From an uncultured Chloroflexia bacterium (lineage in GTDB: Bacteria > Chloroflexota > Anaerolineae > Anaerolineales > Anaerolineaceae): DNA of 32,000 nucleotides. Of the stretch, positions 4,800 to 32,000 are shown piece by piece (position 1 is the first letter of the stretch; each line of letters begins with the position of its first letter). The notes under the pieces were generated by a model. That model was not told where the DNA came from, did no database searches, and saw only the letters and a program-made list of their open reading frames with translations. The translations under genes and the position numbers were made by a program. The DNA lies in assembly GCA_963704755.1 (NCBI GenBank), contig OY969938.1, positions 1,050,001 through 1,082,000 on the forward strand, in the 5' to 3' direction.

Positions 4800-4806
4800 T
4801 TGTCTC

Positions 4807-8361: not shown

Positions 8362-8418
8362 TCCAAAGCTCTTTGGTGGTTTCGGTTCACTAAATCTAAG
8401 GCCGAGGGTTCACGCCGT

Positions 8419-11413: not shown

Positions 11414-11421
11414 ACATCCTG

Positions 11422-13984: not shown

Positions 13985-14002
13985 AAGGACTTGAATTGTT
14001 TT

Positions 14003-15268: not shown

Positions 15269-15269
15269 T

Positions 15270-18077: not shown

Positions 18078-18089
18078 CAGGTAAATCCT

Positions 18090-18986
18090 ATGATCATAAA
18101 TTCGATTTTGGATGTAATTGGGAACGCACCTATGGTCCGGCTGAAACATATGTCCTCTGGAAATGTTTTTGCCAAAGCGGAGTTCCTCAACCCGGGTGGA
18201 AGTATCAAAGACCGGGTGGCAAAATACATAATCCAGACGGCGATGCAAACCGGAACGCTGAAATCTGGCATGACCATCATCGAAGCGACTTCCGGAAATA
18301 CGGGTATCGGCCTGTGCCTGGTGGGGGTTCAATGTGGTTTTAAGGTCATTTGTGTGATGCCCGACAATGTCAGCGGCGAACGGAAGCGGATCATTCAGGC
18401 CCTGGGCGGTGAAGCGGTATTGATCCCCGCGAAAGAAAACCTGGCCGGCTGTTTGAAATATATCCGTGACCAGGCCGCCACAGATCCGGATAAATATTTC
18501 CTGGTCAATCAATTCGACAATTTCGATAATCCGGAGACCCATTACCTCCAAACCGGCCCGGAAATCTGGAAGGACGTCGATGGCGAAGTGGATATGTTTA
18601 TCGCCGGCATCGGCAGCGGAGGAACCTTGCAAGGGGTAGGAAAGTACCTGAAAGAGAAGAATCCCCAAGTCAAAATTGTCGCGGTCGAACCCCGCCGGGC
18701 CACCTCGCTGCTGGGTCGAGAGCCAGGATTGCATCAAATCCAGGGCATCGGAGACGGGTTTATTCCCGGTGTATTGGATGTCGAGTTGATCGATATGGTT
18801 TTCTCGATTTCCGACGAAGAAGCCATTGCAACCACGCGGCGATTGGCCTGCGAGGAAGGTCTGCTGGTCGGCACGTCCTCTGGCGCAAACGTTTTTACCG
18901 CGCTGCAAATGGACAATAGCCGCAACCGGATTGTGACCGTCTTGCCGGACCGGGCCGAAAGATATTTCAGCACAGCCTTGTTGTGA
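18090..18986 (+). CDS. cysK: Cysteine synthase / O-acetylserine sulfhydrylase family PLP enzyme (CysK/CysM-like)
   Basis: LNPGGSIKDR (PLP lysine), ATSGNTGIGL (Asn loop), GIGSGGT (Gly loop) and GTSSGAN. 298 aa. The symbol denotes the family only; a CysM-type or other paralogous function is not excluded. Confidence 0.9.
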   Translation: MIINSILDVIGNAPMVRLKHMSSGNVFAKAEFLNPGGSIKDRVAKYIIQTAMQTGTLKSGMTIIEATSGNTGIGLCLVGVQCGFKVICVMPDNVSGERKRIIQALGGEAVLIPAKENLAGCLKYIRDQAATDPDKYFLVNQFDNFDNPETHYLQTGPEIWKDVDGEVDMFIAGIGSGGTLQGVGKYLKEKNPQVKIVAVEPRRATSLLGREPGLHQIQGIGDGFIPGVLDVELIDMVFSISDEEAIATTRRLACEEGLLVGTSSGANVFTALQMDNSRNRIVTVLPDRAERYFSTALL

Positions 18987-18990
18987 TATT

Positions 18991-19051
18991 GCGGATGTCC
19001 TAAACACAAAGAGAGCGGATAATCCGCTCTCTTTGTGTTTAGGACATCCGC
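18991..19051. repeat. 61-nt perfect palindrome (30-nt arms, single central A) immediately after the cysK-like stop
   Basis: GCGGATGTCCTAAACACAAAGAGAGCGGAT A ATCCGCTCTCTTTGTGTTTAGGACATCCGC, checked base by base. It starts 5 nt after TGA 18984-18986. There is no U-tract after it. Confidence 0.85.
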
Positions 19052-19108
19052 CAGCGATGTACCTCAACGATGGACGAATCCTGAGAGTGTCGAAAAACGC
19101 CTTCATAT

Positions 19109-19546: not shown

Positions 19547-20572
19547 ATGACCAAACACCCAACCCTCTTTATTACCCAACGCGGGCAATACCACCAACAG
19601 GCTGCCCTGGATGCAGCCCCGGCCGACCTGGACGTGACCATGATGCGGGCGCCTTCCAAGGAGGAAATAATTTCCCTCCTGCCCGGTAAAGAATTTTTGA
19701 TCACCGAACGGGCCGGCGTCATCGACGCAGACATCATTCGCGCCGGCAAGGATCTGCGCCTGATCCAACGCTTAGGCTCGCAAACCCACGACATCGACCT
19801 GGACGCGGCCCAGGCAGCGGGCATTCCGGTCTGCTATCTGCCAATCCAGACCTGCATCATGGTTGCCGAGCACCTGCTCATGCAAATGCTGGGCCTGGCC
19901 AAACGATCCCCAGAGATGATGCGCATCGTGATGAGCGCCGAAAATTTCGGTCACGAGCCCACCCGCTGTAATGAAGATACATTTGCCTATAACTGGTCCG
20001 GCCGGGAAGATATCCGTGGTTTGTGGAAGTCAACGGTGGGAATCCTGGGGATGGGTGAAATTGGTTTTGAATTGGCCCGCCGCCTGCGCAACTTTGGCTG
20101 CAAGGTTATTTACAACAAACGCAACCGCCTGCCTGCTCACGCCGAACGCGAGCTGAATGTAAGCTATGCCACCCGCGAAGAACTGCTGGCCGCCAGCGAT
20201 TTCGTCTGCATCCTCTTGCCTCTGCTCAAAGAGACCGAGCAAAGCCTGGACGAAAAATTCTTTGCCAGCCTGAAACCCGGCGCAATTTTTGTCAGTTCCG
20301 GTGGCAGCGGCGTCATCGACGAAAACGCCCTGGCCGGAGCTATTTCTTCCGGCAAGTTGTATGGCGTCGCGGTGGACAATTTCACCTATGAACCGATCCG
20401 CCCGGATTGCCCTCTGCTTGCTCCAGCCGCTCGCCCGGACACGAACGTGATCTTGACCCCCCACACCGCCGCGGGCACCGTGCCGGTGGTGGACAAAGAC
20501 CTGCGTATCGATGATTACCAGAACCTGACCAGGCTCCTCAACAACGAAGAGCTTGAATTTCGTTTGGTATAA
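19547..20572 (+). CDS. D-isomer-specific 2-hydroxyacid dehydrogenase (phosphoglycerate/glyoxylate reductase-like), NAD(P)-binding
   Basis: 341 aa. Rossmann motif GILGMGEIGFELARRL, then the catalytic-region pattern ending in LTPHTAAGT. Confidence 0.88.
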   Translation: MTKHPTLFITQRGQYHQQAALDAAPADLDVTMMRAPSKEEIISLLPGKEFLITERAGVIDADIIRAGKDLRLIQRLGSQTHDIDLDAAQAAGIPVCYLPIQTCIMVAEHLLMQMLGLAKRSPEMMRIVMSAENFGHEPTRCNEDTFAYNWSGREDIRGLWKSTVGILGMGEIGFELARRLRNFGCKVIYNKRNRLPAHAERELNVSYATREELLAASDFVCILLPLLKETEQSLDEKFFASLKPGAIFVSSGGSGVIDENALAGAISSGKLYGVAVDNFTYEPIRPDCPLLAPAARPDTNVILTPHTAAGTVPVVDKDLRIDDYQNLTRLLNNEELEFRLV

Positions 20573-20972: not shown

Positions 20973-22595
20973 TCAGGTCAGGAAAGTGATTTCCTCAGCC
21001 GGGCCAACCGGTGCATTTTCCGGTTTACCGCCGGCCATCAAGAAGCCGATCCGGTTCAGGTTCGTCTCGGCAGCCGGCCGCGTCTCGCTGATCTGGCCTT
21101 CGTAGATGACGCTGATCACATCGCTTAGGGCCATAATCTCGTCCAGTTCGGAAGAGATGATTAGCACCGCGCAGCCGCGGTCGCGCGCTTCGACGATCTG
21201 CTTGTGGATAAACGAGGCCGCCCCAACATCCAACCCACGGGTCGGCTGCATAGCCACCAGCACGGTTGGGTCGCACCACAGCGAGCGGGCCAGAATGACT
21301 TTCTGCTGGTTTCCGCCGGAAAGCTTTTTCGTTTCCATCGTGGGGTCCGGCGCGCGGATGTCGAATTTTTCCATCAGCGCTTCGGCATGTTCGTTCATCA
21401 CCTTGAACTGGCGCATCCCTTTTTTGGCATACGGCGGGCGCTCATAATTCTCCAGCAGCAGGTTATCGGTGATGCTCATTCCCAGCACCAGGCCTTCAGT
21501 CTGCCGGTTTTCCGGGATCAGCTCGATCCCGGCCATGATCCGTTTAGCCGTTTCCAACTTGGATATGTCTTCATCGCGGTAGATGATTTTTCCCGATTCC
21601 AGCCCGTGCAGGCCCATCATCGTCTGGACAAGCATTTGCTGGCCGTTGCCATCCACGCCTGCCAGGCCATGAATTTCACCGGCCTTGAGGCCCAGGTTGA
21701 GCCCGTTTAATTTCAAAGTGCCCAGTTCATCTCTGGCAGATGCGTCGCGCAATTCCAGGGTAATTGCCCCACTCTTGCACGGGTTTTTAGCGACGGTCAA
21801 GTCAACGGCCTGGCCAACCATCAATTCGGCCAGTTCGAAAGTGGTGGTATTACAGGTGTTCACCGTCTGGATGACCTTACCGCGGCGCATAACCGTAACC
21901 CGGTCGCTGATATGCAGCACTTCCTTCAGCTTGTGGCTGATGAAGATAATGGTCACCCCATCTTCGCGCAGCTTTTGAATCAGCTTGAACAGCTCTTCGG
22001 TTTCCTGGGGGATCAGCACTGCGGTGGGCTCGTCCAGGATGAGGATACGCGCACCGCGATACAGGGCCTTGATGATCTCCACTTTCTGCTGTTGGCCAAC
22101 GGTCAGCTCCCCGACCAGCCTCGTCAGGGGAACATTAAGGCCAAAATCATCCGCCAGAACCTTGGCTTTACTCAAGGCCTGGTCCAGGTCCAACAGGGGA
22201 TATTGTTTAGACTTCAACCCCAGGATGATGTTTTCGATCACCGAGAAGGTTGGGATGAGCATGAAATGCTGGTGCACCATTCCGATTCCCAGGGCGGTTG
22301 CATCCTGGGGAATATGAATTTGGGCCTTTTTACCGCGTACAAAAACTTCGCCTTCGTCCTTCTGGTACAGGCCATAGACGACTTTCATCAAGGTGGATTT
22401 ACCCGCCCCGTTTTCGCCTAACAGCGCGTGGACTTCGCCAGAATAGATCTCCAAATCGACGTGGTCGTTAGCGACGACACCCGGGAATTTCTTGGTGATC
22501 CCTTCCATCTTCAAAACGACATCCCGGCCTTCGGTCGAAAAAACCTGGTCACCGTTGATGGGTTCGGGGTTGATTTCAGTAGTCATTTCGCTCAT
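20973..22595 (-). CDS. ABC transporter ATP-binding protein with two ABC cassettes (BMP/nucleoside-sugar type, NupO/RnsA-like)
   Basis: 540 aa. First cassette: GENGAGKST, LTVGQQQKVEI, ILILDEPT. Second cassette: GVDGNGQ, LSGGNQQKVILAR. It is the last gene of the operon. Confidence 0.9.
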   Translation of the reverse strand: MSEMTTEINPEPINGDQVFSTEGRDVVLKMEGITKKFPGVVANDHVDLEIYSGEVHALLGENGAGKSTLMKVVYGLYQKDEGEVFVRGKKAQIHIPQDATALGIGMVHQHFMLIPTFSVIENIILGLKSKQYPLLDLDQALSKAKVLADDFGLNVPLTRLVGELTVGQQQKVEIIKALYRGARILILDEPTAVLIPQETEELFKLIQKLREDGVTIIFISHKLKEVLHISDRVTVMRRGKVIQTVNTCNTTTFELAELMVGQAVDLTVAKNPCKSGAITLELRDASARDELGTLKLNGLNLGLKAGEIHGLAGVDGNGQQMLVQTMMGLHGLESGKIIYRDEDISKLETAKRIMAGIELIPENRQTEGLVLGMSITDNLLLENYERPPYAKKGMRQFKVMNEHAEALMEKFDIRAPDPTMETKKLSGGNQQKVILARSLWCDPTVLVAMQPTRGLDVGAASFIHKQIVEARDRGCAVLIISSELDEIMALSDVISVIYEGQISETRPAAETNLNRIGFLMAGGKPENAPVGPAEEITFLT

Positions 22596-22600
22596 GATTT

Positions 22601-23659
22601 TTACCCTTCTTCCTGGAAAGGCGCCCCACTGGCTGACGGTGCGCGGGCGTTGCGCATCAAAGCTACCAGAGCGATCAGGGTAACCACGTAGGGCAGCATC
22701 AACAAAAGTTGGTACGGCACGTGGATTCCATAAGCCTGTAAGCGGATCTGGAGGGCATCCCCCAAACCGAACAGCAGCGTTCCCAGAAAAGCACCAACCG
22801 GGTTATAGCGGCCGAACACCACCGCGGCAAAGGCGATAAACCCACGGCCGGCCGAGAGGTTTTCCTGGAAAGCATTGATCCCCGAAGCACTGACCAGCGC
22901 GGAACCGCTTATGCCGGCGATCGCACCGCTGATCAACACCGCGATGTAGCGCACCCGGTTGACATTGATTCCAACCGTGCTGGCGGCCATGGGGTGCTCG
23001 CCGACGGAACGCAGGGTCAGCCCCCAGGATGTTTTGTAGAAGATAAACGACATGACCGGGATCAACAACAAAGCCAGGTAAACGATGATGTTGTGCGAGA
23101 AGAACGCTTTGCCCACGTAAGGCAGGTCACTTAAGATTGGGATATGGATAGCCTGAAAACCAGGGGCCGAAACGAAGGCCTGGTTGACGTAAAGCAGCCG
23201 GTAGCCCAGGGCAGTTGCGGCCATGGCAAACAGGTTAAGCGCCACAGCACTGACGATCTGGTTGCTGCGCAGGGAGATCGAGAAAACGGCGTGAATCAGG
23301 CCGACCAGCATACCGGCGATGGCTGCGGCTATCAGTCCCACCCAGGGACTGCCGCCGCGGTCCGAAGCCGCGTAAGCCACGAACGCACCGATGAGCATCA
23401 TCGATTCGAGCGCCATATTCAGCACACCCGAAAGCTCACTGACCAGGCCACCCAGGGCGGCCAGCAAAAGGGGAGTCATGGCGATCAAGGCCGCCCGAAC
23501 GAATTCGGGGGCTACCAGGATATCGAGAATACTATCCAGTGTATCACGGGTTTTTCCGCCTACCATTTGCAAGGCAAGCCCAATGATCACCAGCGCACCG
23601 ATAAAGATCAGGAGTTTACGAACACTACTGCGGGCAAAGAACTGTTTTAGTTTTACCAT
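22601..23659 (-). CDS. ABC transporter permease (BPD_transp_2 type, NupQ/RnsD-like)
   Basis: 352-aa polytopic ORF. Its start overlaps the upstream permease stop by 7 nt (ATGGTAA). Confidence 0.88.
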   Translation of the reverse strand: MVKLKQFFARSSVRKLLIFIGALVIIGLALQMVGGKTRDTLDSILDILVAPEFVRAALIAMTPLLLAALGGLVSELSGVLNMALESMMLIGAFVAYAASDRGGSPWVGLIAAAIAGMLVGLIHAVFSISLRSNQIVSAVALNLFAMAATALGYRLLYVNQAFVSAPGFQAIHIPILSDLPYVGKAFFSHNIIVYLALLLIPVMSFIFYKTSWGLTLRSVGEHPMAASTVGINVNRVRYIAVLISGAIAGISGSALVSASGINAFQENLSAGRGFIAFAAVVFGRYNPVGAFLGTLLFGLGDALQIRLQAYGIHVPYQLLLMLPYVVTLIALVALMRNARAPSASGAPFQEEG

Positions 23660-24756
23660 TTTCGATCTTCTCCCTGTAGTTTGCGGGCGATTTCCACAAT
23701 CTTCGGAGAGGATGCAGCCAAAACGGCCAGAATCGCCAGTACACGCACCAGGTCAACTAACTGAGCAGGCAGCTTGGCGATTGCTTCCATAGCAACTGCC
23801 CCTGTCTGAAGACCGGAGAAAAACAACGCGGACAGGCCAACGATGAAGGGCTCAAAACCACCCAACAACGCCACCGCAATAGCGTCATAACCCGTATTGG
23901 GTGCGAAACCAGAAATCAACCGGGTCTGGTAACCCAGGATTTCAGAGGCTCCGGCCAGGCCAGCCAGCGAACCGCTTATAAAGAAAGCTAATAGGAATAC
24001 CTGATCTGAACGAATACCCGCATGGAAAGCAGCAACCGGGTTTTGCCCGACGATGCGCACTTTTTGTCCCAGGGTGGTATAGCGCATTACAAAGAACATG
24101 ATCAGCATGGCCACAACCGCGATCACCAACCCCAGGTGCAATTGCGTATGTGGGATCAGTTTAGGATACATCGTGTTGCTCACCACCGGCCATGAGGTTG
24201 GCGCATCCGTGTGCCCGCCGGACTTGATCGGCCCGGAGACCATGTAATCAACCAGGTAAATCCCGATGTAGTTCAAGAGAATAGTGGAAATAATTTCGTT
24301 AGACCCGTAGCGTATCTTTAGAAACGCGGGGAACAATGCCCACAACCCGCCGGCAACAAAAGCCGCCAGGGTGGCTAAAAGCATATGTAAAGGACCAGGC
24401 AGATTTGGAAACTTGCCAGCCACGATAATCGCGGCTAATGCGCCTGCATACATTTGCCCAACTGCACCGATATTGAACGCTCCCGCTTGAAAAGCAAATG
24501 CGATTCCCAAACCGCATAATAAAAGCGGGACGGCTGTTTTCAATGTCTCAGATGTTTGAACGAGATTCCCAAACGAACCTTGCCAAAGTGCTTGATAGGC
24601 CGTAATCGGGTCGAAACCCATGAGGATCATGATAACGGCACCGATAAGAATTGCTATGAGAATCGACAATAAAGGCAATCCAATACTTGCAAAGGGCAGA
24701 CTAAACCTGGCTTTCTGCTTCAATGGTCTTAGAGTCTCGCTAAATTCTTCCGACAT
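23653..24756 (-). CDS. ABC transporter permease (BPD_transp_2 type, NupP/RnsC-like)
   Basis: Polytopic ORF. I prefer ATG 24756 (MSEEFSETLRPLKQKARF...) with GGAGAA 6 nt upstream. The track TTG 24819 would read through the GC hairpin at 24786-24808. Confidence 0.86.
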   Translation of the reverse strand: MSEEFSETLRPLKQKARFSLPFASIGLPLLSILIAILIGAVIMILMGFDPITAYQALWQGSFGNLVQTSETLKTAVPLLLCGLGIAFAFQAGAFNIGAVGQMYAGALAAIIVAGKFPNLPGPLHMLLATLAAFVAGGLWALFPAFLKIRYGSNEIISTILLNYIGIYLVDYMVSGPIKSGGHTDAPTSWPVVSNTMYPKLIPHTQLHLGLVIAVVAMLIMFFVMRYTTLGQKVRIVGQNPVAAFHAGIRSDQVFLLAFFISGSLAGLAGASEILGYQTRLISGFAPNTGYDAIAVALLGGFEPFIVGLSALFFSGLQTGAVAMEAIAKLPAQLVDLVRVLAILAVLAASSPKIVEIARKLQGEDRKW

Positions 24757-24785
24757 AAAAGTTCTCCAGGCTTCCGTGAGACGAA

Positions 24786-24808
24786 GGGTGCGGGGCAGGC
24801 CCGCACCC
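24786..24808 (-). other. GC-rich intra-operon hairpin between the binding-protein gene and the first permease gene
   Basis: GGGTGCGGG (24786-24794), loop GCAGG, CCCGCACCC (24800-24808). There is no U-tract on the transcribed (minus) strand, so it looks like an mRNA-stabilising or processing hairpin rather than a full terminator. Confidence 0.5.
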
Positions 24809-24828
24809 TTTTCAATCAAAACAATTAA

Positions 24829-25899
24829 TTATTGAGATATAGTGAAGCTTAGTTTGCCAGCCAGGTAATCGTTGATGGCGGACTGAACTTTGTCCTGAAC
24901 ATCCTGGGGAACGAAGTCGCCCCATTGGCCCATCTTCTGGGTGCCTTCAGCGAAACCGCTGATGAAGGTGGTGTTCCCTTCCAGTTTACCGGCCAGGAAC
25001 TGCTGAGCAACTTCCATGTACACACCGGGGATATCCTGGACGCCGCTGGTGATGACGGTATCGGGAGCCAGCGCGTAGTTATCGCCACTCCAACCGCCGA
25101 TGACCATTACGCCACTGTCCTGGGCCAGTTTGATGGCCGGAGGAGTGAAGGCATCGCCCATGATGACGAGAACATCGACACCGCGGTCGATCTGGGCCTG
25201 AGCAACCTGCTGGCCCTTGACCACATCGTCCCAGGAACCCACGAAGGAAACGTTCACATCAGCGTCGGGATTGACAGCCAGGGCGCCAACCGAAATGTTG
25301 TCGGAATCGGCAGTAACCTGGGGAGCATCTTCAGCAGCCACGACACCGATTTTATTGTTTTTGGTCATCAAACCGGCAGCCATACCAGCGAAGTAACCCA
25401 GCTCACCGAATTTGAAGTTGGTACCAACAATATTGTTGCCGGCCGTGGTGGCGTTGATCTGGACGAACATGATGTTCGGGAAATCCGGAGCAACAGCAGT
25501 CAGAGCATCACCCCATTCATAACCATGAACGAAGATGAGGTCATAACCTTGTTGCGCATACTGGCGCAGCACGTTCTGCTGCTGGGCAGCGGCTACATTT
25601 TCGGAATAAGCCATTTCCCAACCGAGTTTGTCGTGGATTTCCTGGACGCCTTCCAGAGCTAACTGGTTCCAACCATGATCGTTGGTCGGGCCCGAGGTAA
25701 CCATGGCCACTTTGTAGGTTTTACCCTCAGCGGTCGGCACAGCCGTGGAATTCGACAATGCCAGGGTCGGTTGTGCAAGGCTTGCGACTGTGGGAGCAAC
25801 AGCTTCTTGCGTCGGGGTAGCTGCCTGCGAGCAACCAAACATAGCGATCGCAGCAATTACGAAAATCAGCGAAAGTTGAACCAACTTGTTGAATTTCAT
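24829..25899 (-). CDS. BMP-family (Med/PnrA/TmpC-like) ABC substrate-binding lipoprotein
   Basis: Signal peptide with lipobox AMFGC, then an A/P/T-rich linker. MVTSGPTNDHGWNQ is the BMP-type motif. GGAGAGAGA RBS on the minus strand directly upstream of the ATG. Confidence 0.9.
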   Translation of the reverse strand: MKFNKLVQLSLIFVIAAIAMFGCSQAATPTQEAVAPTVASLAQPTLALSNSTAVPTAEGKTYKVAMVTSGPTNDHGWNQLALEGVQEIHDKLGWEMAYSENVAAAQQQNVLRQYAQQGYDLIFVHGYEWGDALTAVAPDFPNIMFVQINATTAGNNIVGTNFKFGELGYFAGMAAGLMTKNNKIGVVAAEDAPQVTADSDNISVGALAVNPDADVNVSFVGSWDDVVKGQQVAQAQIDRGVDVLVIMGDAFTPPAIKLAQDSGVMVIGGWSGDNYALAPDTVITSGVQDIPGVYMEVAQQFLAGKLEGNTTFISGFAEGTQKMGQWGDFVPQDVQDKVQSAINDYLAGKLSFTISQ

Positions 25900-26317
25900 T
25901 CTCTCTCCTATTTTCAGGTTTTGTAAAATTGGGAATTCATTGTCGTGGAATAATATGCAACCACTATCCAGCTAACCAGTTTCCAGCTAAAACGAGTTAA
26001 ACCCTCTCTCTTAATTTATCCGTGTAGCCTCCTTGAATTAAGATATGATTTCACCCGTGCGAATATCGCGGTTTGACAAGAGCTGCCTCTATACAAACCT
26101 GCTGCTGAATTCGATCCGTTGTTCCTCGGTTGTTGTTCTTAACCATGGGCAGTAAAATTTACACAAAGCTCTTACTGATAAACAAGCGGTTACCAGGGAA
26201 AACCACCCCATTTTCCGGAAGGTTAGGAATTTTGAATTTTTATTCTTCGTTTCAGTGGAATAACCTGATTTTAGCAAAAACAAATACATCTGTCAACCAC
26301 AAGTTTACACTTGTAAT

Positions 26318-26723
26318 CTATATGTTAATTGATAAATTATTTACTGAACAGTAATTTACCGTTTTTGCCGAAGATTTCCAAAACCCCATCCAATTCTCGC
26401 AGTAGAGGGTCCACCAGGAATAGTCCTCAACCCAGGCCCGGCCCATCATAGCGGGGCAATCCGGTCGATTTCCCCATATATTTTGGACAATGGCCTGGAA
26501 AAAGTCTTTTCGGAGTGAACAGGTTGTAAATATGCACATTGGGCGATTCGATGGTGCCCATATTATCAGGAATATTCCAATTCAGGTAGTTATTTATAGG
26601 AAAATACGCCCGTTCTTTGCACTTTTGTAAAATTTCCAAGAATCGAGGGGCAAGGTTACTTTTCAGCGCCGGGTAAAAGCCTATTCGTGCCATCACCCGA
26701 TTGTCCAAATCAATTTGTTCCAT
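26318..26723 (-). pseudogene. Possible frameshifted remnant of a small gene of unknown function
   Basis: Two overlapping minus-strand ORFs in adjacent frames (26427..26723 and 26318..26539) both read protein-like. They could be joined by a 1-nt shift near the A5/T5 runs at about 26509-26520 (GGAAAAAGTCTTTTCGG). The region is AT-rich. No family recognised. Confidence 0.3.
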
Positions 26724-26759
26724 TTTGAAACACGCTGCCGGCGCGCACCCTCATCCCAA

Positions 26760-26815
26760 CCTTCTCCCTCGCTGGAGAAGGCGGAAAACAATTTCCGGCT
26801 TTCGAAGCCGGAAAT
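26760..26815. other. Two adjacent short hairpins
   Basis: First: CCTTCTCC CTCGCT GGAGAAGG (26760-26781). Second: ATTTCCGGCTT TCG AAGCCGGAAAT (26791-26815). Confidence 0.6.
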
Positions 26816-27132
26816 ACGCCGGACTATCAATCGTTCGTCAATTCACCAGGCTGACAATGGTGTTCCTCGCCCAAATTGGCATTAATTCCGCCCACCTACC
26901 CGCTTCAAGTACCATTGCTCGATCATAAATATGCCAAATGTCATAATTGAAGCAGGATTAAGAGTTGTTTAGAATGAATAATGCGTTTTAATGTGGCTTA
27001 ACTATTTTCAGGCCGGCACGCATAAGAACGCTTCCCTTTGGTTCCACTCCATCGATATAAGAAAACCTGGATAGATCAATTTCTTTTTAGCTCAGGTTGC
27101 ATGCAGCATGCAGGAAAGCTCAGGCGAACTTC

Positions 27133-28113
27133 ATGATCCCTCAAATTCCTTTCCCCATCGAGAAATTACGCCTCAATCTGCTTTACCAGGATCCCATCGA
27201 ACTGGAAAAAGCTAAGGCCAGCTCGGCTGCGTCCAAGTCGCTTTCCAAAGTCAGTGAAGCCTACCATGACTTATACTTCCCCGCCCCCGCCGAGGACCGG
27301 CCATATATTTTCGCCTCGATGGTCCTCTCGCTGGACGGGAAAATGGCCTTCCCCGACAATCCCCAGGGACCGGTGGTCGCTTCGGCCAATGCCATCGACC
27401 GCGAAGGCGGGCTGACCGATTTTTGGGTCCTGAATGTGCTGCGTGCCTACGCCGACGCGATCGTGGTCGGGGCGCGCACCCTCCAATCCGAGCCGGATGC
27501 CGTCTTCTCCTGCCTGGACCACGATTTGCTGGCCGAGCGCAAAGACCTCCTGGGCAAACAACGTGAATGCCCGCTGACTATCGTGGTTTCGCTGGATGGG
27601 CAGGACATTCCCCTTAATCATTCTATTTTCTCCGTCCCTGAAGTCCAAACAATACTGGCCACCTGCCATCGCGGTGGCCAGTATTTGCAATCTCAATGTG
27701 GATCGGATGCCATGTTGATCGGCCCCTTCAACGCTATCACTGATATCGATACCGTCGAGCTGCTCCGCCAGGTCAAACAAGGTTTCCGGGCCCACAAGAA
27801 AATCGTCCTGATGACCGGCGAAAACGAACCGGACGCCCGGGTGCTGATGTACTGTCTGCGTAAAATCGGCGTTGGGCACCTGTTGATCGAATCACCGACC
27901 TACATGTGGCTCTTGATGGGCCAGGCCATGCTGGACGAATTCTTCGTCGATTACTCGACCCTTTTCATCGGCGGGTTGTTCACCCCCGGTTACAACAACG
28001 GCTTTACTTCCCTGAGCCACCCGCACAGCCGCTTCCTGGTCATCGCCATGCACCAGCACAGCTTCCTGTTCACCCGCCAGAAACTTATCTACGGCCTATC
28101 CACTCAGTCCTGA
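27133..28113 (+). CDS. RibD C-terminal domain (pyrimidine reductase / DHFR-like fold) family reductase, without a deaminase domain
   Basis: PYIFASMVLSLDGKMAFPDNPQGPVVASANAIDREGGLTDFWVLNVLRAYADAIVVGARTL is a typical RibD_C core. There is an N-terminal extension of about 60 aa and no cytidine-deaminase-type zinc motif. The start is ATG 27133, with TTG 27097 less likely. Confidence 0.8.
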   Translation: MIPQIPFPIEKLRLNLLYQDPIELEKAKASSAASKSLSKVSEAYHDLYFPAPAEDRPYIFASMVLSLDGKMAFPDNPQGPVVASANAIDREGGLTDFWVLNVLRAYADAIVVGARTLQSEPDAVFSCLDHDLLAERKDLLGKQRECPLTIVVSLDGQDIPLNHSIFSVPEVQTILATCHRGGQYLQSQCGSDAMLIGPFNAITDIDTVELLRQVKQGFRAHKKIVLMTGENEPDARVLMYCLRKIGVGHLLIESPTYMWLLMGQAMLDEFFVDYSTLFIGGLFTPGYNNGFTSLSHPHSRFLVIAMHQHSFLFTRQKLIYGLSTQS

Positions 28114-28138: not shown

Positions 28139-29557
28139 ATGGAAAATGTTGATCTGATTATCAAAAACACAACCATCGTCACGATGGATACCGCTACCTC
28201 CATCCTGCCAGACCACGCAATCGCGGTCAAAGGCAGCAACATCATCGCCATCGAGCCCAGCGCGAGCCTGCTCGAAAAATACACCGGCGCCAAAGTCATT
28301 GACGGGATCGACCGCTTTGTCTTTCCGGGTTTTGTCAACACCCACACCCACCTGTTCCAGAATGGGCTCAAGGGCCTGGGGCGAGACAAGCTTTTGTTCG
28401 ACTGGCTGGACAGTTCCGTCCGCCGCGCGCTGCGTGAAATTCGCTATGAGGATGTGTACAACGCGGCCGTCGCCGGCTGCCTGGAAAATATCCGCAGCGG
28501 CGCGACCACTGTGCTGGATTACATGTACGCTCATGGCAGCCAGTTAAGCCTGGACGATGCCGTCATTCAGGCCTTCGAAGATACCGGTATCCGCGGCATT
28601 TTGGGGCGGGCCCACACCAAGACCGAATTCTTGCCCAAAGGCAGCGAATGTGAGATCAACGAGACCGAAGATATGTTCTTCGCAGATGTTGACCGCCTGA
28701 TGGCAAAATTAGCCGGCAACGGCAGGATCTCGCTAGCCATGGCTCCCGGCATCATTTGGGATATGAGCGAAGAGGGTTACCGCCAACTCCGCCGCTATGC
28801 GGATAAATACGGCATCCGCATAACCATGCACCTGGATGAAACCGGCGAGGACGACGAATTTGCCCTGAACAAGTTTGGCGTCAACGCTGCCGAATTACTG
28901 GACCGCAACGGTGTGCTCGGCGAAGATTTTATCGGGGTTCACCTGGTCCACCTCGACCCGAAAACCATCGAGCTCTTGCAGAAACGCCAGGTCAAGGTCT
29001 CGCACAACCCGGTTTCCAATATGATCCTGGCTTCTGGGGTCGCCCCCATCCCGCACCTGTCCGAACTCGGGCTGGTGATCGGCCTGGCGACCGACGGCGC
29101 CGCCAGTAACGATACCCAAAACATGCTGGAAGTGGTCAAAACCACTGCCATCTTGCATAAATGCATCCAGCGGGATGCAACTCTCTTCCCCGCCATCGAG
29201 GTGTTGAAAATGGCCACCATCGGCGGCGCCCGTGTGGCCGGCCTGGACCACGAGATCGGCTCGATCGAGGTCGGCAAGAAGGCCGACTTCTTCCTGTTCA
29301 ATCCGCGCAACGTGGCCTGCGTCCCGGTAGCCGATCCGATTGCTTCCCTGGTGTACTCGGCCAATCCCACATCCATCGATACGGTCGTTATCCACGGCCA
29401 GGTCGTCCTGGAAGACGGCCAGTTCCGCACCGTGAATGAAGAAAACGCCGTCTACGCCTTGCAAGATTCGGCTTTTCGCCTGCGGCAGCGGGTTGGCCTG
29501 GGCTGCCAGATCAACGGCCAGGAAATAACCGTCGGGCCATTCCACAAACAGGCTTAG
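28139..29557 (+). CDS. Amidohydrolase-superfamily deaminase/chlorohydrolase-like enzyme (COG0402: guanine deaminase / MTA-SAH deaminase / TrzA-AtzA group)
   Basis: 472 aa. Metal and catalytic motifs FPGFVNTHTHLFQ (HxH), ITMHLDET (HxxE), GVHLVHL and GLATDGAASN. AAAGGAG RBS 5 nt upstream. Confidence 0.88.
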   Translation: MENVDLIIKNTTIVTMDTATSILPDHAIAVKGSNIIAIEPSASLLEKYTGAKVIDGIDRFVFPGFVNTHTHLFQNGLKGLGRDKLLFDWLDSSVRRALREIRYEDVYNAAVAGCLENIRSGATTVLDYMYAHGSQLSLDDAVIQAFEDTGIRGILGRAHTKTEFLPKGSECEINETEDMFFADVDRLMAKLAGNGRISLAMAPGIIWDMSEEGYRQLRRYADKYGIRITMHLDETGEDDEFALNKFGVNAAELLDRNGVLGEDFIGVHLVHLDPKTIELLQKRQVKVSHNPVSNMILASGVAPIPHLSELGLVIGLATDGAASNDTQNMLEVVKTTAILHKCIQRDATLFPAIEVLKMATIGGARVAGLDHEIGSIEVGKKADFFLFNPRNVACVPVADPIASLVYSANPTSIDTVVIHGQVVLEDGQFRTVNEENAVYALQDSAFRLRQRVGLGCQINGQEITVGPFHKQA

Positions 29558-29668: not shown

Positions 29669-30358
29669 ATGACCCAATTGAACCCATTCGAACAATCGCT
29701 CGAAATCGAAGCTCGCCGCCCATTTTTGAGCAAAGGCGAGTATGTCTATCGCTTGTTGAAAGAAAAAATTGTTAACGGATACCTGGAACGGAACAAAATC
29801 TACACCGTGGTAGAAATCGCCGAAAGCCTGGGCGTCAGCCGGACACCCGTCGGCAAGTTGGTCAAGATTTTGGCTTCCCAGAACTACGTCATCCAGTTCC
29901 CAGGGGTTGGCTTCAAAGTCAAGGAACTGACCATCGACGATATCCGCGAGACCTTGATCATTTCTGGTGCGTTGGAAGAAGCTATTCTGCACAAGATCGT
30001 CAAAGATGGCAAATCGCTGTCTGCCAACCTGAAGGAAGCCATGCGCAACACCTGGTCGGCTTTCGAGGAGCAGGCGCCCGAGCTGTACACGCAGGCTTCC
30101 GCAGACTACCACAAAGCCCTGTATGCGCTCTCGGGCCTGCACCGCGTGACCGAAATCTTGAGTGAAAACATCCTGGCGCACGAGATCTGGTACCGCGAAG
30201 GTGCCATCCGCTACCCCGAACTGATTAAAAAAATGATCCTCGATCACGAGGCGATCCTGGATCTGATCCGTCACCGCGAGGACCAAAAAATTAACGGCGT
30301 AATTGCAGCCCATGTCGAAAACTGCGAGCAAGTTTTAATCAAAGTCATCAAGGATTGA
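29669..30358 (+). CDS. GntR-family transcriptional regulator with an FCD (FadR-like) C-terminal domain
   Basis: The wHTH is YTVVEIAESLGVSRTPVGKLVKILASQNYVIQFPGVGFKV. The helical C-terminal domain carries His residues (ADYHKALY, DHEAILDLIRHRE). ATG 29669 is preferred over the track start 29621. Confidence 0.85.
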   Translation: MTQLNPFEQSLEIEARRPFLSKGEYVYRLLKEKIVNGYLERNKIYTVVEIAESLGVSRTPVGKLVKILASQNYVIQFPGVGFKVKELTIDDIRETLIISGALEEAILHKIVKDGKSLSANLKEAMRNTWSAFEEQAPELYTQASADYHKALYALSGLHRVTEILSENILAHEIWYREGAIRYPELIKKMILDHEAILDLIRHREDQKINGVIAAHVENCEQVLIKVIKD

Positions 30359-30434
30359 ACCGTGGTATTTAAACCTTGTTACAGTTCAGCAGGACTTGAT
30401 CGGTAATTCAAATTTACTTTCCAAGGAGTCCGAA

Positions 30435-31166
30435 ATGAAACGCTTTCAAGATAAGGTCGCGATCGTAACAGGCGCCGGTAGAGGACTGGGGGCTCAATAT
30501 GCCAAGGACCTCGCGCGAGAAGGGGCTGTCGTTGCTATCTGGGATATCAACGCTACCAACCTGCAAAAAGTCAAGGAAGAGATCGAATCTGAGGGGGGAC
30601 GGGTGGTCACCTCGACCACCGATATCACCGATTTCAGCCAGGTTGAAGCCGCCGTTGCCGAGATCGTCCGCCAGTTCGGCAAAGTGGATATCCTTATCAA
30701 CAACGCGGCATATCACAAGGCCCAATCGGTCTTCGAAACCTCGGTCGAGGATTGGAAGAAACAGATCGACACCAATTTGAATGGCTCTTTTTATTGCACC
30801 AAAGCCGTCCTGCCTTATATGTTAGAGAAACAATACGGAAAAATCTTGAACATCGCCTCGGCGGCGGCCAAAGTTTATTTCCCCGGTTTTGGCGCCTATT
30901 CGGCCTCCAAAGCAGGCATTATTGGGTTTTCGAACGTCCTCTCCGAAGAAGTCAAATACAAAAATATCAACGTCAATTCCGTGTACCTGGGGATGACCAA
31001 CACCGAGTACACCCGCGAGCGGATCGGCAGCGATCCTTCCGTCACCATTTCGCTCAACGAAATGATGCAGCCGCCGGAAGTAGCGAAAGTGGTCCTCTTC
31101 CTGGTTTCGGACGAAGCCGCCCCCATCAAAGGCGCAGCCGTTGACGTATTCGGAAACCGCTATTAG
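30435..31166 (+). CDS. Short-chain dehydrogenase/reductase (classical SDR, FabG-like)
   Basis: TGAGRGLG cofactor motif, NNAA, and the catalytic S...YSASK. AAGGAG lies 7 nt upstream of ATG 30435. The track start 30396 is rejected. Confidence 0.9.
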   Translation: MKRFQDKVAIVTGAGRGLGAQYAKDLAREGAVVAIWDINATNLQKVKEEIESEGGRVVTSTTDITDFSQVEAAVAEIVRQFGKVDILINNAAYHKAQSVFETSVEDWKKQIDTNLNGSFYCTKAVLPYMLEKQYGKILNIASAAAKVYFPGFGAYSASKAGIIGFSNVLSEEVKYKNINVNSVYLGMTNTEYTRERIGSDPSVTISLNEMMQPPEVAKVVLFLVSDEAAPIKGAAVDVFGNRY

Positions 31167-31177
31167 GAGCGCAAAGC

Positions 31178-32000
31178 GTGAAAACATCTATCAACAAACT
31201 AGCCGTCAAAGTCGTCAAAGAGATCATCGCCCGCGAAGATGAGATTGGTGTCAAAGTCATCCACATGAACTGCGGCGCAACCCTGATCGACATGGGCCTG
31301 AACGTCAAGGGAAGCAACGAAGCCGGGCTCCTCTTTACGCGGGTCACCCTGGGCGACATGGCCACCGTCAACCTGGGCACCTGGAAGCTGGACGACGACT
31401 ACATCTTCGGCTCGGTCGAGCTGTTCGTCACCGAGCCGCTGGTCGCCTGCCTGGCCTCGCAAATCGCCGGCTGGCAACTGGGCAGCGGTGAATTCGCCAC
31501 CATTGGCTCCGGCCCGGCCCGGGCCCAGGCCGTCATTCCCAGCGATTATTACCTGGACATGACCCCCTACCGCGACCGCAACGACGAAGTAGTGCTGTGT
31601 ATCCAGGATATCCGCTATCCGGACGATGCGATCGCCCTGGAAGTGGCCCAGGCCTGCAAAGTGGCGCCCGAAAACGTGTACCTGTTGATTGCACCCAGCG
31701 CCTCGATTGTAGGCTCGATCCAGGTCTCGGCCCGCATGATCGAGGAAGTCTGCCACAAGATGCACGAAAAGGGCTTCGACGTCTCCAAGGTGATCAATGC
31801 CCGCGGCCGCACGCCGGTCGCCCCGCTGGTAATGGACGAGGTCAAGGCCATCGGCCGCATCAATGACGCCATTCTGTACGGCGGCGACACCGAGTTCTGG
31901 GTGGACGCCAGCGACGAAGAAATCGCCGCGGTGGTCGAAAAACTGGTTTCCAAAACGTCATCCCCCTATTACCCCGAGTTGTTCGGGGTGGTGTTCGAGC
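31178..32000 (+). CDS. Methenyltetrahydromethanopterin cyclohydrolase (Mch) family protein, function here probably different (3' end outside the window)
   Basis: Absent from the ORF track. GTG 31178 has AGGAG 8 nt upstream, and 274 codons are open to the window end. The translation contains GATLIDMG, EAGLLF, EPLVACLASQIAGWQL, ATIGSGPARAQ, APENVYLLIAPSASIVGSIQVSARMIEEVCHKMHEKGFD, PVAPL and AIGRINDAILYGG. These match the conserved blocks of Mch as I remember them from methanogens and methylotrophs. Confidence 0.8.
   Translation, partial: MKTSINKLAVKVVKEIIAREDEIGVKVIHMNCGATLIDMGLNVKGSNEAGLLFTRVTLGDMATVNLGTWKLDDDYIFGSVELFVTEPLVACLASQIAGWQLGSGEFATIGSGPARAQAVIPSDYYLDMTPYRDRNDEVVLCIQDIRYPDDAIALEVAQACKVAPENVYLLIAPSASIVGSIQVSARMIEEVCHKMHEKGFDVSKVINARGRTPVAPLVMDEVKAIGRINDAILYGGDTEFWVDASDEEIAAVVEKLVSKTSSPYYPELFGVVFE

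Follow-up and report, generated by a model that had tools for sequence, protein, structure and literature searches.

Can an enzyme with the fold and the catalytic residues of methenyl-H4MPT cyclohydrolase (Mch) act on something other than methenyl-H4MPT? This question is posed by a gene at the end of a 32,000-nt stretch of DNA from an uncultured Anaerolineaceae bacterium (the window, to which all coordinates refer). The original prediction, made from the sequence alone, was that an Mch-fold protein with no C1-metabolism genes around it is likely to hydrolyse a different cyclic substrate.

A truncated Mch-family gene and its neighbours

The gene, of the paralogue type we call MCH1, lies on the forward strand at 31178..32000, where the window edge cuts it after the N-terminal 274 of 320 codons. 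From the GTG at 31178 all 274 codons are open up to the window end. A Shine-Dalgarno-like AGGAG, read from the sequence at 31165..31169 on the same strand, precedes the GTG by 8 nt and overlaps the stop codon of an SDR gene (TAG, 31164-31166), from which the start is separated by 11 nt. The translation carries the blocks VACLASQIAGWQ, GSGPARA, PENVYLLIAPSASIVGSIQVSAR and GRINDAILYGG. The list of open reading frames gives just 31199..31765 (minus strand), 31615..31953 (minus strand) and 31597..31866 (plus strand) for this region; the Mch frame is missing because frames still open where the source ends go unlisted. On the start, the AGGAG, the open frame and the decoy status of the listed ORFs, the sequence, its translation and the list bear out the original prediction. 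Its estimate of about 45 missing C-terminal residues also held: a full-length protein of 320 aa (P0001), 100% identical to the window ORF and located on a 4,871,623-bp contig, sets their number at 46. On a Logan contig (L001) with 3 mismatches in 5,034 nt relative to the window, an independent gene caller chose the same Mch start.

The truncated ORF matches the Pfam profile PF02289 (MCH) with an E-value of 7e-87 and 292 bits (gathering score 25) over positions 1-266 of 311, and the match stops at position 266 because the window edge truncates the ORF. On the NCBIfam equivalog TIGR03120 (EC 3.5.4.27) it scores 267.5 bits, above the cutoff of 228.8, and the MCH2 paralogue reaches 292.4 bits. PDB entry 1QLM is matched with an E-value of 4e-74, and full-length P0001 aligns with it end to end. 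An AF2 model of the Mch-like protein (pLDDT 88.9) has the two-domain alpha/beta fold of Mch; Foldseek with this model gave a TM score of 0.92 to 1QLM, 4GVQ and 4FIO and no other fold with E < 0.01. Judged by sequence comparison, the assignment to the Mch family goes far past chance. The original prediction, which had assigned the family from the conserved blocks, would have failed without an MCH match; the PF02289 match is very strong, so this did not occur.

The catalytic pair is retained. In the family alignment, R186 and E189 occupy the columns of the catalytic R183 and E186 of A. fulgidus Mch and are invariant in all clades; the residue exchanged in the E186Q crystal forms 4GVR and 4GVS corresponds to E189. 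The Mch-like protein keeps the outer residues of segment 93-95 (A. fulgidus numbering) as Q95 and A97, and the middle residue is Ile, as opposed to Tyr, Lys or Leu in canonical sequences. The roles given here to Arg183/Glu186 and to segment 93-95 in A. fulgidus Mch are those reportedly assigned by Upadhyay et al. 2012. The protein thus shares with Mch (1QLM, 4GVQ, 4FIO) the fold, 35-41% identity (41% to M. kandleri Mch, TM 0.92), the Gln and Ala of segment 93-95 and the Arg/Glu pair. Given this shared fold and catalytic pair, its chemistry is presumably the same by analogy, namely the attack of water on a cyclic formamidinium to yield an N-formyl amine.

Upstream on the same strand, Pfam and NCBIfam agreed with the neighbours named in the original prediction. 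The SDR (30435..31166; PF00106, E 6e-61) is the conserved partner directly upstream of the Mch-like gene; its longest ORF starts at a TTG at 30396, and the gene caller placed the start (on L001) at 30435. A GntR/FCD-family transcription regulator (29669..30358; PF00392 and PF07729), which occupies the equivalent position in Chloroflexota and several Bacillota loci, is likely the local regulator of the Mch operon. The metal-dependent amidohydrolase (28139..29557; PF01979, E 1.8e-63) belongs to the nucleobase/triazine deaminase group. Its best NCBIfam matches (chlorohydrolase, 5'-deoxyadenosine deaminase, 8-oxoguanine deaminase and SsnA) are all under cutoff, with 174-180 bits on the SsnA models IPR017700/TIGR03314 (179.7 on one) against cutoffs of 444-455; by these scores it is a relative of SsnA, not SsnA itself. 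Its nearest PDB entries are 4V1X, 4F0R and 7WW2, and the group includes 2PAJ, which we take to be an isoxanthopterin deaminase. The string begins with a RibD_C-like protein (pyrimidine-reductase/DHFR fold; 27133..28113; PF01872, E 2e-7) that has an N-terminal extension and an insertion, matches pyrimidine reductase models weakly and has only the 5XUX series as PDB relatives.

Divergent from this string lies a BMP/PnrA-type ABC importer of four genes (20973..25899, minus strand; PF02608, PF02653 twice and PF00005), absent from the original prediction. It consists of a binding protein (24829-25899), two permeases (23653-24819 and 22601-23659) and a double ATPase (20973-22595). In the 1.2-kb intergenic region between the importer and the RibD_C-like gene (25900..27132), promoter-like sites are no commoner than in shuffles; one minus-strand site (26296-26268) has a TG extension and agrees at 11 of 12 positions, an 11-bp hairpin lies at 26815-26791, and Rfam found no match. 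On the far side of the importer, a D-2-hydroxyacid dehydrogenase resembling glyoxylate/hydroxypyruvate reductases (19547..20572, plus strand; PF02826 and PF00389) is a possible peripheral member of the Mch system. Homologues with 59-72% identity lie downstream of Mch in four Chloroflexota loci (L003, L004, L007 and L058), in the first three of them just past the lipoate ligase position. A PLP enzyme in the window was considered as a YgeX and rejected; it is an unrelated CysK (363.9 bits, cutoff 350.95).

A branch apart from canonical Mch, with no H4MPT genes nearby

In a neighbour-joining tree of the family, which carries no bootstrap support, the Mch-like protein falls within a superclade containing every operon-linked sequence. 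The other superclade holds both solved archaeal Mch (1QLM and 4GVQ) and 95 of the 118 family representatives, so the phylogeny did not group the protein with canonical Mch. Two residues are switched between the branches. In place of E140 of A. fulgidus Mch (Glu in 91% of canonical sequences), the MCH1, MCH2 and distant-SDR groups all have Q143 (100%). F280 (Phe in 92%) is replaced by H288, which is 95-100% conserved within MCH1 and MCH2. D123, Y125, C141, Y168, R227 and W241 are fixed in the operon clade only, while the proteobacterial Mch of Azoarcus has the canonical Y94/E140/F280 signature. As far as sequences and an unbootstrapped tree can tell, the Mch-like proteins of the operon are a bacterial branch apart from canonical Mch. 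A search of plasmids returned canonical proteobacterial and haloarchaeal mch genes only (31-35% identity), giving a positive control and no new context; the haloarchaeal one, from Natronorubrum (35% identity), lies outside the sampling of the tree.

The surroundings differ as well. Neither Pfam annotation nor tblastn with 11 proteins of a genuine H4MPT cluster found C1 genes in the 31 kb preceding the gene. These probes (Fae, MtdB-like, beta-RFAP synthase, ATP-grasp, MfnB, DUF447 and others) gave no tblastn match in the window and 72 loci (1.23 Mb), and the control Mch probe matched all 73 sources. The 10 kb around each of 69 related genes are free of H4MPT and methanofuran genes; in the Azoarcus positive control, all 11 partner proteins are packed around mch. 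The lack of a C1-metabolism context on which the original prediction rested thus extends from the window to about 1.2 Mb around 69 relatives, with the genome beyond the window uninspected. Unlike Mch, the Mch-like gene is never found beside fae, mtd, fhc or H4MPT/methanofuran biosynthesis genes in the loci examined. Rfam at gathering thresholds returned no riboswitch or RNA family in the window and seven representative loci, and no clue to a ligand.

A conserved operon across phyla

In the related loci, the Mch-like gene is part of an operon of SDR, Mch-like protein, E1alpha, E1beta and lipoyl-E2, often joined by E3, lipoylation genes (lipoyl ligase/synthase) and a second Mch paralogue. Its carriers are Chloroflexota, Spirochaetota, Halanaerobiales and Bacillota, with records titled C. 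difficile among the last. Frequent flanking genes encode xanthine-dehydrogenase-type enzymes (XDH), deaminase-type amidohydrolases, a RibD_C-like reductase and nucleobase/nucleoside transporters. The gene directly upstream of Mch (at most 150 nt, same strand) is an SDR in 47 of 67 loci; the one directly downstream is E1alpha in 44 of 63. Among 69 loci, E1beta is present in 55, E2 in 50 and E3 in 25; the amidohydrolase is found in 37, RibD_C in 25 (mostly beside the amidohydrolase), the BMP importer in 21, XDH in 20 and FMN_red in 16. At least two Mch copies occur in 22 loci, two or three paralogues can share one operon, and Halanaerobiales clusters contain two separate SDR-Mch pairs. This setting, in which the hosts are fermentative anaerobes, again sets the protein apart from Mch. 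The E1alpha, E1beta and E2 genes and the second Mch paralogue behind the gene in relatives did not figure in the original prediction.

Independent match lists for Mch and E1alpha have 29 contig sizes in common, and E1alpha P0124 and MCH2 P0422 are on contigs of 4,871,623 bp, the size of the P0001 contig. In the source strain, the 81 nt 3' of the Mch stop, at the end of a 5.3-kb Logan contig, contain no E1alpha start, and the operon may therefore be split there. The same 81-nt tail has no hairpin and T-run above chance (1 seen, 1.6 expected). The operon is tightly conserved, and the best 120 database matches of E1alpha share 66-89% identity with the Chloroflexota query. We found no description of the operon in the literature searched, which did not cover Tong et al. 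2023, who reportedly described the xanthinase-pathway cluster.

The relatives' loci also hold a Xan_ur permease, the Mo, FeS and FAD subunits of XDH, a PydA/UacX-like protein (PF01180 and Fer4) and YgeW-type (PF00185), UacY-type (PF07969) and F420 luciferase-family (PF00296) proteins. Li et al. 2025 relied on these families to recognise variants of the reductive uric-acid cluster, among them the F420 variant of Chloroflexota. The transporters of C. difficile-type clusters are Xan_ur (NCS2) nucleobase permeases, and the XDH of relatives is nearest to XdhA-type xanthine dehydrogenase models. The window contains neither an XdhA/D-type molybdoenzyme nor a ring reductase (YgfK, UacX or F420 LLM), and among relatives the UacX-like protein occurs in 3 loci and the F420 LLM in 3 Chloroflexota loci. 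Purine-type genes are missing from roughly half of the loci, many of them on short contigs, and the recurrent gene clusters of 71 loci include neither a HyuA hydantoinase nor a YgeX diaminopropionate ammonia-lyase. Other substrates, namely ectoine (a cyclic amidine), histidine/imidazole-pyruvate and nucleoside ribityl cleavage, were set aside as unsupported.

Candidate substrates and a possible pathway

Because the Mch-like branch travels with a thiamine/lipoate complex and often with purine-breakdown genes, a different ring substrate is most likely. We give roughly even odds (about 0.5) to the ORF being the MCH1 of a conserved catabolic operon of anaerobes, an Mch-family enzyme that does not act on methenyl-H4MPT and has a purine-derived substrate; its competence is predicted and its substrate untested. 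In this best reading, which is inferred and not demonstrated, the enzyme is a cyclic-amidine hydrolase acting on a purine-derived, non-H4MPT intermediate. The original prediction of a different cyclic substrate is supported by the separate superclade and the absence of a C1 context, with the substrate itself unidentified. The most probable function of the protein is to open another nitrogen ring, as part of a breakdown pathway that has yet to be described, and its database name is then a misnomer.

The class of substrate, the order of the steps and the products are all inferred. A purine-type base or nucleoside would be imported and then trimmed by XDH or a deaminase. Reduction of the C4=C5 bond would turn the imidazole ring into an imidazoline, a cyclic formamidine that mirrors, in a small molecule, the imidazolinium ring of methenyl-H4MPT. 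Hydrolysis of this amidine to an N-formyl amine would fall to the Mch-like enzyme with its Arg186/Glu189 water-activating pair; the conservation of the pair is observed, the hydrolysis is not. In the known reductive uric-acid pathway, the counterpart of this step would be the action of the hydantoinase HyuA on the 8-oxo ring. Loss of formate, urea or ammonia might follow, after which the SDR and the E1/E2/E3 complex could oxidise the leftover C3 oxo- or hydroxy-acid to an acyl-CoA.

This scheme resembles the reductive uric-acid/2,8-dioxopurine pathway (XdhD, YgfK/UacX, SsnA, HyuA, YgeW/UacY, YgeY, YgeX; Li et al. 2025; Liu et al. 2025), which is also anaerobic and found in overlapping taxa (Bacillota, Chloroflexota and Spirochaetota). 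The two share accessory families, which around the Mch operon comprise XDH, an SsnA-related amidohydrolase, YgeW/UacY-type enzymes, a PydA-like reductase and, in Chloroflexota, an F420 luciferase-type reductase. The proposed logic is alike: dearomatise, open both rings and release a C3 unit. The text of neither 2025 preprint mentions a cyclohydrolase, Mch, or a thiamine or lipoyl enzyme. Unlike the reductive pathway, the Mch system lacks HyuA and YgeX, and its amidohydrolase stays below the SsnA cutoff. With the Mch-like enzyme in the hydantoinase's place, the intermediate would be an 8-H compound (imidazoline), not an 8-oxo one (hydantoin). It is possible, though only as a tentative proposal, that this amounts to a fourth anaerobic purine route besides the oxidative, xanthinase and reductive ones. 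Here a methanogenesis-type Mch-fold enzyme would have been recruited to open the imidazoline of a reduced 8-H purine, and the skeleton would pass via the SDR and the TPP/lipoyl complex to acyl-CoA. Transfer would have carried the route between Chloroflexota, spirochaetes, Halanaerobiales and Clostridia, the last with C. difficile lineages and gut Oscillospiraceae among them.

Several observations count against a purine-derived substrate and lead to other explanations. The score above the equivalog cutoff would suit a genuine methenyl-H4MPT cyclohydrolase that serves an H4MPT-dependent C1 pathway encoded elsewhere in the genome. This would also be compatible with the similarity to M. kandleri Mch, the intact active site and the uninspected rest of the genome, but it appears very improbable: H4MPT/methanofuran genes are missing from the 31 kb here and from 10 kb around 69 relatives, whereas the control locus is packed with them, and the tree puts the protein in the other superclade, where the signature residues are switched. 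The host taxa (C. difficile, Pseudoflavonifractor, Oscillospiraceae, Halanaerobiales and spirochaetes) are not known to make H4MPT. Some loci contain a corrinoid protein, pterin-binding and URO-D-type methyltransferases, or a Mer-like F420 enzyme, which could indicate C1-pterin chemistry instead. The SDR and the Mch-like protein would then act like FolD, or like Mtd and Mch, on the C1 unit of tetrahydrofolate or another tetrahydropterin, and the neighbours would make or use this unit. We consider this unlikely, if still worth keeping in mind. As in FolD or Mtd plus Mch, a dehydrogenase adjoins the cyclohydrolase; no other link within the operon is as tight (47 of 67 loci), Halanaerobiales have two such pairs, and the catalytic site is fully conserved. 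Next to the operon, Halanaerobiales encode Pterin_bind, a URO-D-type methyltransferase and an MtgC-like corrinoid protein, as do, in part, spirochaete and Peptococcaceae loci. Haloarchaea use folate, not H4MPT, and their Mch homologue is suspected to act on C1-folate, although we know of no E1/E2 operon that includes it. That homologue (e.g. HVO_2573) has been flagged as not isofunctional with characterised Mch (Pfeiffer et al., PMC8305020), which speaks for a C1-pterin role here and provides a precedent for a non-H4MPT role within the Mch family. Formiminotransferase, Fhs and MetF, however, appear in no recurrent gene cluster, methyltransferase genes occur in only about 7 of 69 loci and adjoin unrelated xylose genes, and a single C1 carrier poorly explains two or three Mch paralogues per operon. 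Nor do we know of a reaction that links a TPP/lipoyl E1/E2 complex with C1-pterins. The Mer-like, luciferase-family gene that follows Mch in three distant Anaerolineae loci had seemed to support this chemistry and is now ambiguous; it scores 192 bits on Mer against a cutoff of 276, and the putative F420-dependent reductase (PF00296) of Chloroflexota uricolytic clusters (Li et al. 2025) offers an alternative reading of it.

The ring might instead belong to a non-purine heterocycle such as a pterin, lumazine, flavin or other N-heterocycle. The SDR would oxidise a side chain, the acetoin-dehydrogenase-like E1 would cleave it, and the Mch-like enzyme would hydrolyse the amidine or methenyl-type ring of a reduced pteridine. 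Mch naturally acts on a tetrahydropterin, the fold of the RibD_C protein is of the DHFR type, 2PAJ falls in the amidohydrolase group, FMN_red proteins occur in 16 of 69 loci, and BMP-type binding proteins include riboflavin binders of spirochaetes. This remains rather unlikely in the face of the Xan_ur (NCS2) permeases in C. difficile-type clusters, the XdhA-type affinity of the XDH and the nearby UacX-, YgeW- and UacY-type genes, which indicate purines. Finally, the SDR, E1/E2/E3 and lipoate genes also look like acetoin/butanediol operons. The locus could thus be an acetoin/2,3-butanediol-type or generic 2-oxoacid operon, with a ButA-like SDR, AcoABCL-like E1/E2/E3 and lipoylation genes, in which the Mch-like protein is an accessory or has nothing to do with a heterocycle. 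E1alpha homologues are named 'acetoin dehydrogenase' or 'pyruvate/acetoin dehydrogenase' in databases, E1beta scores above the PDH-E1beta subfamily cutoff, E1alpha is nearest to PDH E1alpha, the SDR has a sub-threshold BudC match (NCBIfam), and the Pelobacter aco cluster also has a lipoate synthase gene. Relatives have the components of such a system and the window has the SDR only; no acetoin-specific model reached its cutoff. We nevertheless find this explanation quite improbable. Mch lies between SDR and E1alpha in 44-47 loci over four phyla, often duplicated. Its catalytic residues are strictly conserved, and XDH, deaminase, reductase and nucleobase-transporter genes recur nearby; we know of no classical aco operon with an Mch-family gene, XDH, deaminase, RibD_C protein or nucleobase transporter. 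The cyclohydrolase, deaminase and RibD_C-type reductase also parallel the initial reactions by which riboflavin is made from a purine (GTP cyclohydrolase II/III and RibD). Unlike this system and FolD/Mtd, the operon combines an SDR with an amidohydrolase-type (not CDA-type) deaminase and an Mch (not GCH) fold, in a catabolic setting with importers and an acyl-CoA-forming complex.

To our knowledge, Mch has so far been treated as a single-substrate enzyme family tied to H4MPT. A large bacterial branch that spans phyla and keeps the active site intact, yet has a different conserved context, would be a clear reuse of the Mch fold for new chemistry. The accessory genes tie the operon to anaerobic catabolism of purines or other N-heterocycles, which bears on the disposal of urate in the gut; two new anaerobic purine pathways were published only in 2025. 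NCBI and JGI name the operon-type proteins of Clostridia, Anaerolineae and spirochaetes methenyl-H4MPT cyclohydrolase because they exceed the TIGR03120 cutoff. In one survey that used mch/PF02289 as a marker for 'CO2 to methane', 864 mch reads were counted against 69 mtd reads (PMC10059902). Since the operon proteins pass this cutoff and carry the Mch name, surveys based on mch or PF02289 can overestimate the methanogenic or H4MPT potential of guts, sediments and hypersaline mats.

The Mch-like gene at the window edge

The gene for a methenyl-H4MPT cyclohydrolase (Mch)-like protein, which the original prediction placed at 31178-32000 (+), is real, and its assignment to the Mch fold is confirmed. 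Translated from GTG 31178, the frame is open to the end of the window (274/274 codons) and contains the conserved blocks on which the prediction rested (VACLASQIAGWQ, GSGPARA, PENVYLLIAPSASIVGSIQVSAR and GRINDAILYGG). The start is preceded by an AGGAG motif at 31165-31169 (+), and the stop codon of the upstream short-chain dehydrogenase (SDR), TAG, is read from the sequence at 31164-31166 (+). As had been noted, the ORF list over the gene holds only 31199..31765 (-), 31615..31953 (-) and 31597..31866 (+); the gene is missing from this mechanical list because ORFs running off the end go unreported. The translation matches the MCH family (Pfam PF02289, E 7e-87), and even when cut at the edge it scores 267.5 bits against NCBIfam TIGR03120, above the equivalog cutoff of 228.8. 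An identical full-length protein is on record (P0001, 320 aa, 100% identity, on a contig of 4,871,623 bp), which puts the residues missing beyond the window at 46, where about 45 had been estimated. In L001, a contig with 3 mismatches to the window over 5,034 nt, an independent gene call gives the same start. The AlphaFold2 model (pLDDT 88.9) superposes on Mch of M. kandleri, A. fulgidus and M. ruminantium with a TM of 0.92, and a structure search with the model returned no other match at E < 0.01 besides these three enzymes.

The plus-strand order of the neighbours is as predicted: RibD_C-like protein (27133-28113, +), deaminase-type amidohydrolase (28139-29557, +), GntR/FCD regulator, SDR and Mch-like gene. 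No window gene belongs to C1 metabolism, which bears out the predicted lack of such a context. The RibD_C-like protein measures ~326-338 aa against a 197-position profile and aligns to it as two segments (residues 69-229 and residues 229-304), implying an extended N-terminus and an insertion. Its sole solved relatives are the 5XUX-series chains. An unusually long divergent spacer of 1.2 kb (25900-27132) separates it from a BMP/PnrA-type ABC importer (20973-25899, -). The spacer carries a near-consensus promoter-like site (26296-26268, -), an 11-bp hairpin (26815-26791) and a 98-aa ORF without family match (26427-26723, -); an Rfam search of it found nothing. Further upstream lie a D-2-hydroxyacid dehydrogenase (19547-20572) and CysK (18090-18986, +, by family annotation). 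The whole cysK gene is spanned by an antisense ORF of 363 aa without family match (18015-19106, -), a decoy of the same sort as those over the Mch-like gene. Within the first 17 kb are genes for a histidine kinase and an ABC-2 exporter, together with a cluster for polysaccharide synthesis (6157-16460) that encodes a Wzz/tyrosine-kinase-like protein, a flippase, a Wzy-like polymerase, GT4 glycosyltransferases and a DegT-type aminotransferase. The ORFs 4426-5754 and 12644-13984, each longer than 400 aa, match no Pfam family.

Separation from H4MPT-linked Mch

NCBI and JGI label proteins of this type methenyl-H4MPT cyclohydrolase. A genuine H4MPT enzyme is nevertheless the less likely reading. 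The annotated mch from Azoarcus sp. KH32C, whose product has the canonical signature residues, served as positive control. Its neighbours encode beta-RFAP synthase, NAD(P)-dependent methylene-H4MPT dehydrogenase, an ATP-grasp protein, fae, dihydroneopterin aldolase, a methanofuran-biosynthesis gene and formate dehydrogenase. With 11 of its partner proteins as tblastn probes, no match was obtained in the window and 72 loci (1.23 Mb), while the Azoarcus Mch probe matched 73/73 sources.

The MCH family is small, with 171 representatives at E<=1e-30 in an exhaustive search. A neighbour-joining tree built from 118 full-length representatives together with 77 locus and 2 PDB sequences resolved two superclades. 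The canonical one (n=98) includes 1QLM, 4GVQ and the Bathyarchaeia locus; every operon-linked sequence falls into the other. As the tree has no bootstrap support, we take this split as indicative.

In the column analysis, the catalytic Arg183/Glu186 of A. fulgidus Mch (R186/E189 in the window protein) are invariant in all groups, and Gln93 and Ala95 are likewise conserved. The roles of these four residues were reportedly described by Upadhyay and colleagues in 2012; crystal forms 4GVR and 4GVS carry Glu186 changed to Gln (E186Q). Two positions switch cleanly: E140 (A. fulgidus numbering), a Glu in 91% of canonical sequences, is replaced by Q143 throughout (100%) in the window protein's group (MCH1), its paralogue group MCH2 and the distant-SDR group, and F280, a Phe in 92%, is replaced by H288 in 95-100% of MCH1 and MCH2. 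D123, Y125, C141, Y168, R227 and W241 are fixed in the operon clade only. With catalytic residues invariant and signature residues switched, the chemistry is probably retained and the specificity determinants changed, as far as sequence can tell; whether the switched residues lie in the pocket is not established.

A conserved operon with a dehydrogenase complex

Relatives were collected as 71 loci from a scan of species-representative genomes, and the operon was defined by clustering their ORFs de novo and annotating them with Pfam and NCBIfam. Record titles name Chloroflexia/Anaerolineae (82-88% identity), many Bacillota and Clostridia, Clostridioides difficile (n=3), Pseudoflavonifractor, Oscillospiraceae, Christensenellaceae, Sediminispirochaeta, Sphaerochaeta, Halanaerobiales, Symbiobacterium and Bathyarchaeia (n=1). 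The conserved order is SDR, Mch-like, E1alpha (PF00676), E1beta (transketolase-type domains) and lipoyl-E2 (PF00198), with additions of dihydrolipoyl dehydrogenase and lipoate ligase or lipoyl synthase. SDR lies immediately upstream of Mch in 47/67 loci and E1alpha immediately downstream in 44/63; E1beta is present in 55/69 and E2 in 50/69. Recurrent accessories among the 69 loci are amidohydrolase (37), RibD_C-like protein (25), BMP transporter (21), xanthine-dehydrogenase-type Mo subunit (20), FMN reductase (16), TIGR03792 protein (16) and Xan_ur permeases (8). Independent database searches with Mch and E1alpha queries share at least 29 contig sizes, which supports co-localisation of the two genes at metagenome scale.

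The genes of the operon may not all lie together in the source organism. The nearest relatives have a gap of just 18-30 nt between Mch and E1alpha, and no E1alpha start occurs in the 81 nt after the Mch stop of the near-identical strain (L001:5175-5255). This stretch contains a GC hairpin followed by a T-run, the hairpin not being above chance. An E1alpha (P0124, 89% identical to that of the nearest relative) and an MCH2 protein (P0422, 76%) are found on contigs of 4,871,623 bp, the same size as that of P0001; both probably belong to the source genome, their position there not being established. Between Chloroflexota and C. difficile, where NCBI names the E1alpha copies 'acetoin dehydrogenase', E1alpha identity is ~69% and Mch identity ~60% (L022, L024, L026; hit lists). 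The higher conservation of E1alpha suggests that it is strongly constrained or has recently spread by horizontal transfer.

A second or third Mch-family gene is present in 22 loci. MCH2, which follows the E2 gene (L002:14173-15168; also in L003, L004, L006, L007, L010-L013, L015, L017-L019, L042 and L048), forms its own clade, sister to that of the window protein, with catalytic Arg/Glu intact. A third, divergent member occurs at L018:15613-17322, L019:9611-10612 and L040:210-1226; the gene after it encodes a ~240-aa protein (cluster c60) with only a partial MCH-profile match, so that an operon holds at most three Mch genes and one fragment. Three Halanaerobiales clusters (L052, L053, L061) contain two separate SDR-Mch pairs, in the order SDR-MCH-E1a-E1b-E2 ... 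E3-MCH-SDR-amidohydrolase. This suggests that SDR and Mch are a functional couple, employed twice there.

A possible role in nucleobase catabolism

The genes that accompany the operon point to the catabolism of nucleobases. Among them are Xan_ur permeases, xanthine dehydrogenase Mo/FeS/FAD subunits, amidohydrolases of the deaminase and cyclic types, a carbamoyltransferase (PF00185), a PydA-like PF01180+4Fe-4S reductase, an opine/sarcosine-oxidase-like FAD dehydrogenase and, immediately behind Mch in distant Anaerolineae loci, an F420 luciferase-family enzyme. The same families serve Li et al. (bioRxiv 10.1101/2025.05.19.654654; Life Metab, PMC12507026) as markers of reductive uric-acid pathway variants, among them Chloroflexota clusters with a putative luciferase-family F420 reductase. 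No cyclohydrolase, Mch, thiamine or lipoyl enzyme is mentioned by Li et al. or in the 2,8-dioxopurine paper (10.1101/2025.04.24.650524). Unlike in the uric-acid pathway, HyuA and YgeX were not found in the related loci, and the window amidohydrolase scores below the SsnA cutoff. We infer that the operon encodes a variant pathway handling an 8-H purine; the substrate is unidentified and there are no biochemical data. Here, reduction of the purine C4=C5 bond would yield an imidazoline, which as a cyclic formamidine is an analogue of the imidazolinium ring in methenyl-H4MPT. The Mch-like enzyme would open this ring to an N-formyl amine, the counterpart of the hydantoinase step in the 8-oxo pathway. 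The C3 remnant, at the oxidation level of hydroxypyruvate or tartronate semialdehyde, would then be oxidised to an acyl-CoA via SDR and the PDH/acetoin-DH-like complex. The window 2-hydroxyacid dehydrogenase and a hydroxypyruvate-isomerase-like gene (three loci) are consistent with this oxidation level.

A FolD-like SDR and Mch pair working on a C1-pterin remains a rival. The very tight SDR-Mch adjacency, the paired Halanaerobiales clusters and the corrinoid and pterin methyltransferase genes close by in ~7 loci speak for it, but such a pair has no known connection to an E1/E2 complex. In Halanaerobiales (L051-L053:3143-8335), an MtgC-like corrinoid protein and URO-D-type and Pterin_bind methyltransferases adjoin the operon, intermingled with xylose genes; Pterin_bind is found in spirochaete and Peptococcaceae loci as well (L042, L048, L015, L017). 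Directly after Mch, distant Anaerolineae loci (L057:8477-9439, L066:10969-11985, L062:11291-12112) encode an F420 luciferase-family oxidoreductase, whose best NCBIfam match is the methylene-H4MPT reductase Mer (192 bits, below the cutoff of 276). This protein could reflect C1-pterin chemistry or be the putative F420-dependent purine-ring reductase noted by Li et al. We regard a pterin or flavin substrate, and likewise an acetoin-type operon with Mch as accessory, as less likely than an 8-H purine pathway.

In the literature searched, which did not cover the xanthinase-pathway cluster paper (Tong et al. 2023), we found no published account of the operon and none that gives bacterial Mch homologues a non-H4MPT role. 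A haloarchaeal Mch homologue, flagged as not isofunctional by Pfeiffer et al. (PMC8305020), comes closest to a precedent. In metagenome surveys, mch/PF02289 serves as a 'CO2 to methane' marker (PMC10059902). For the proteins described here the fold is known and, without biochemical data, the chemistry is probably that of Mch; what is new is the conserved pathway context and, probably, the substrate.
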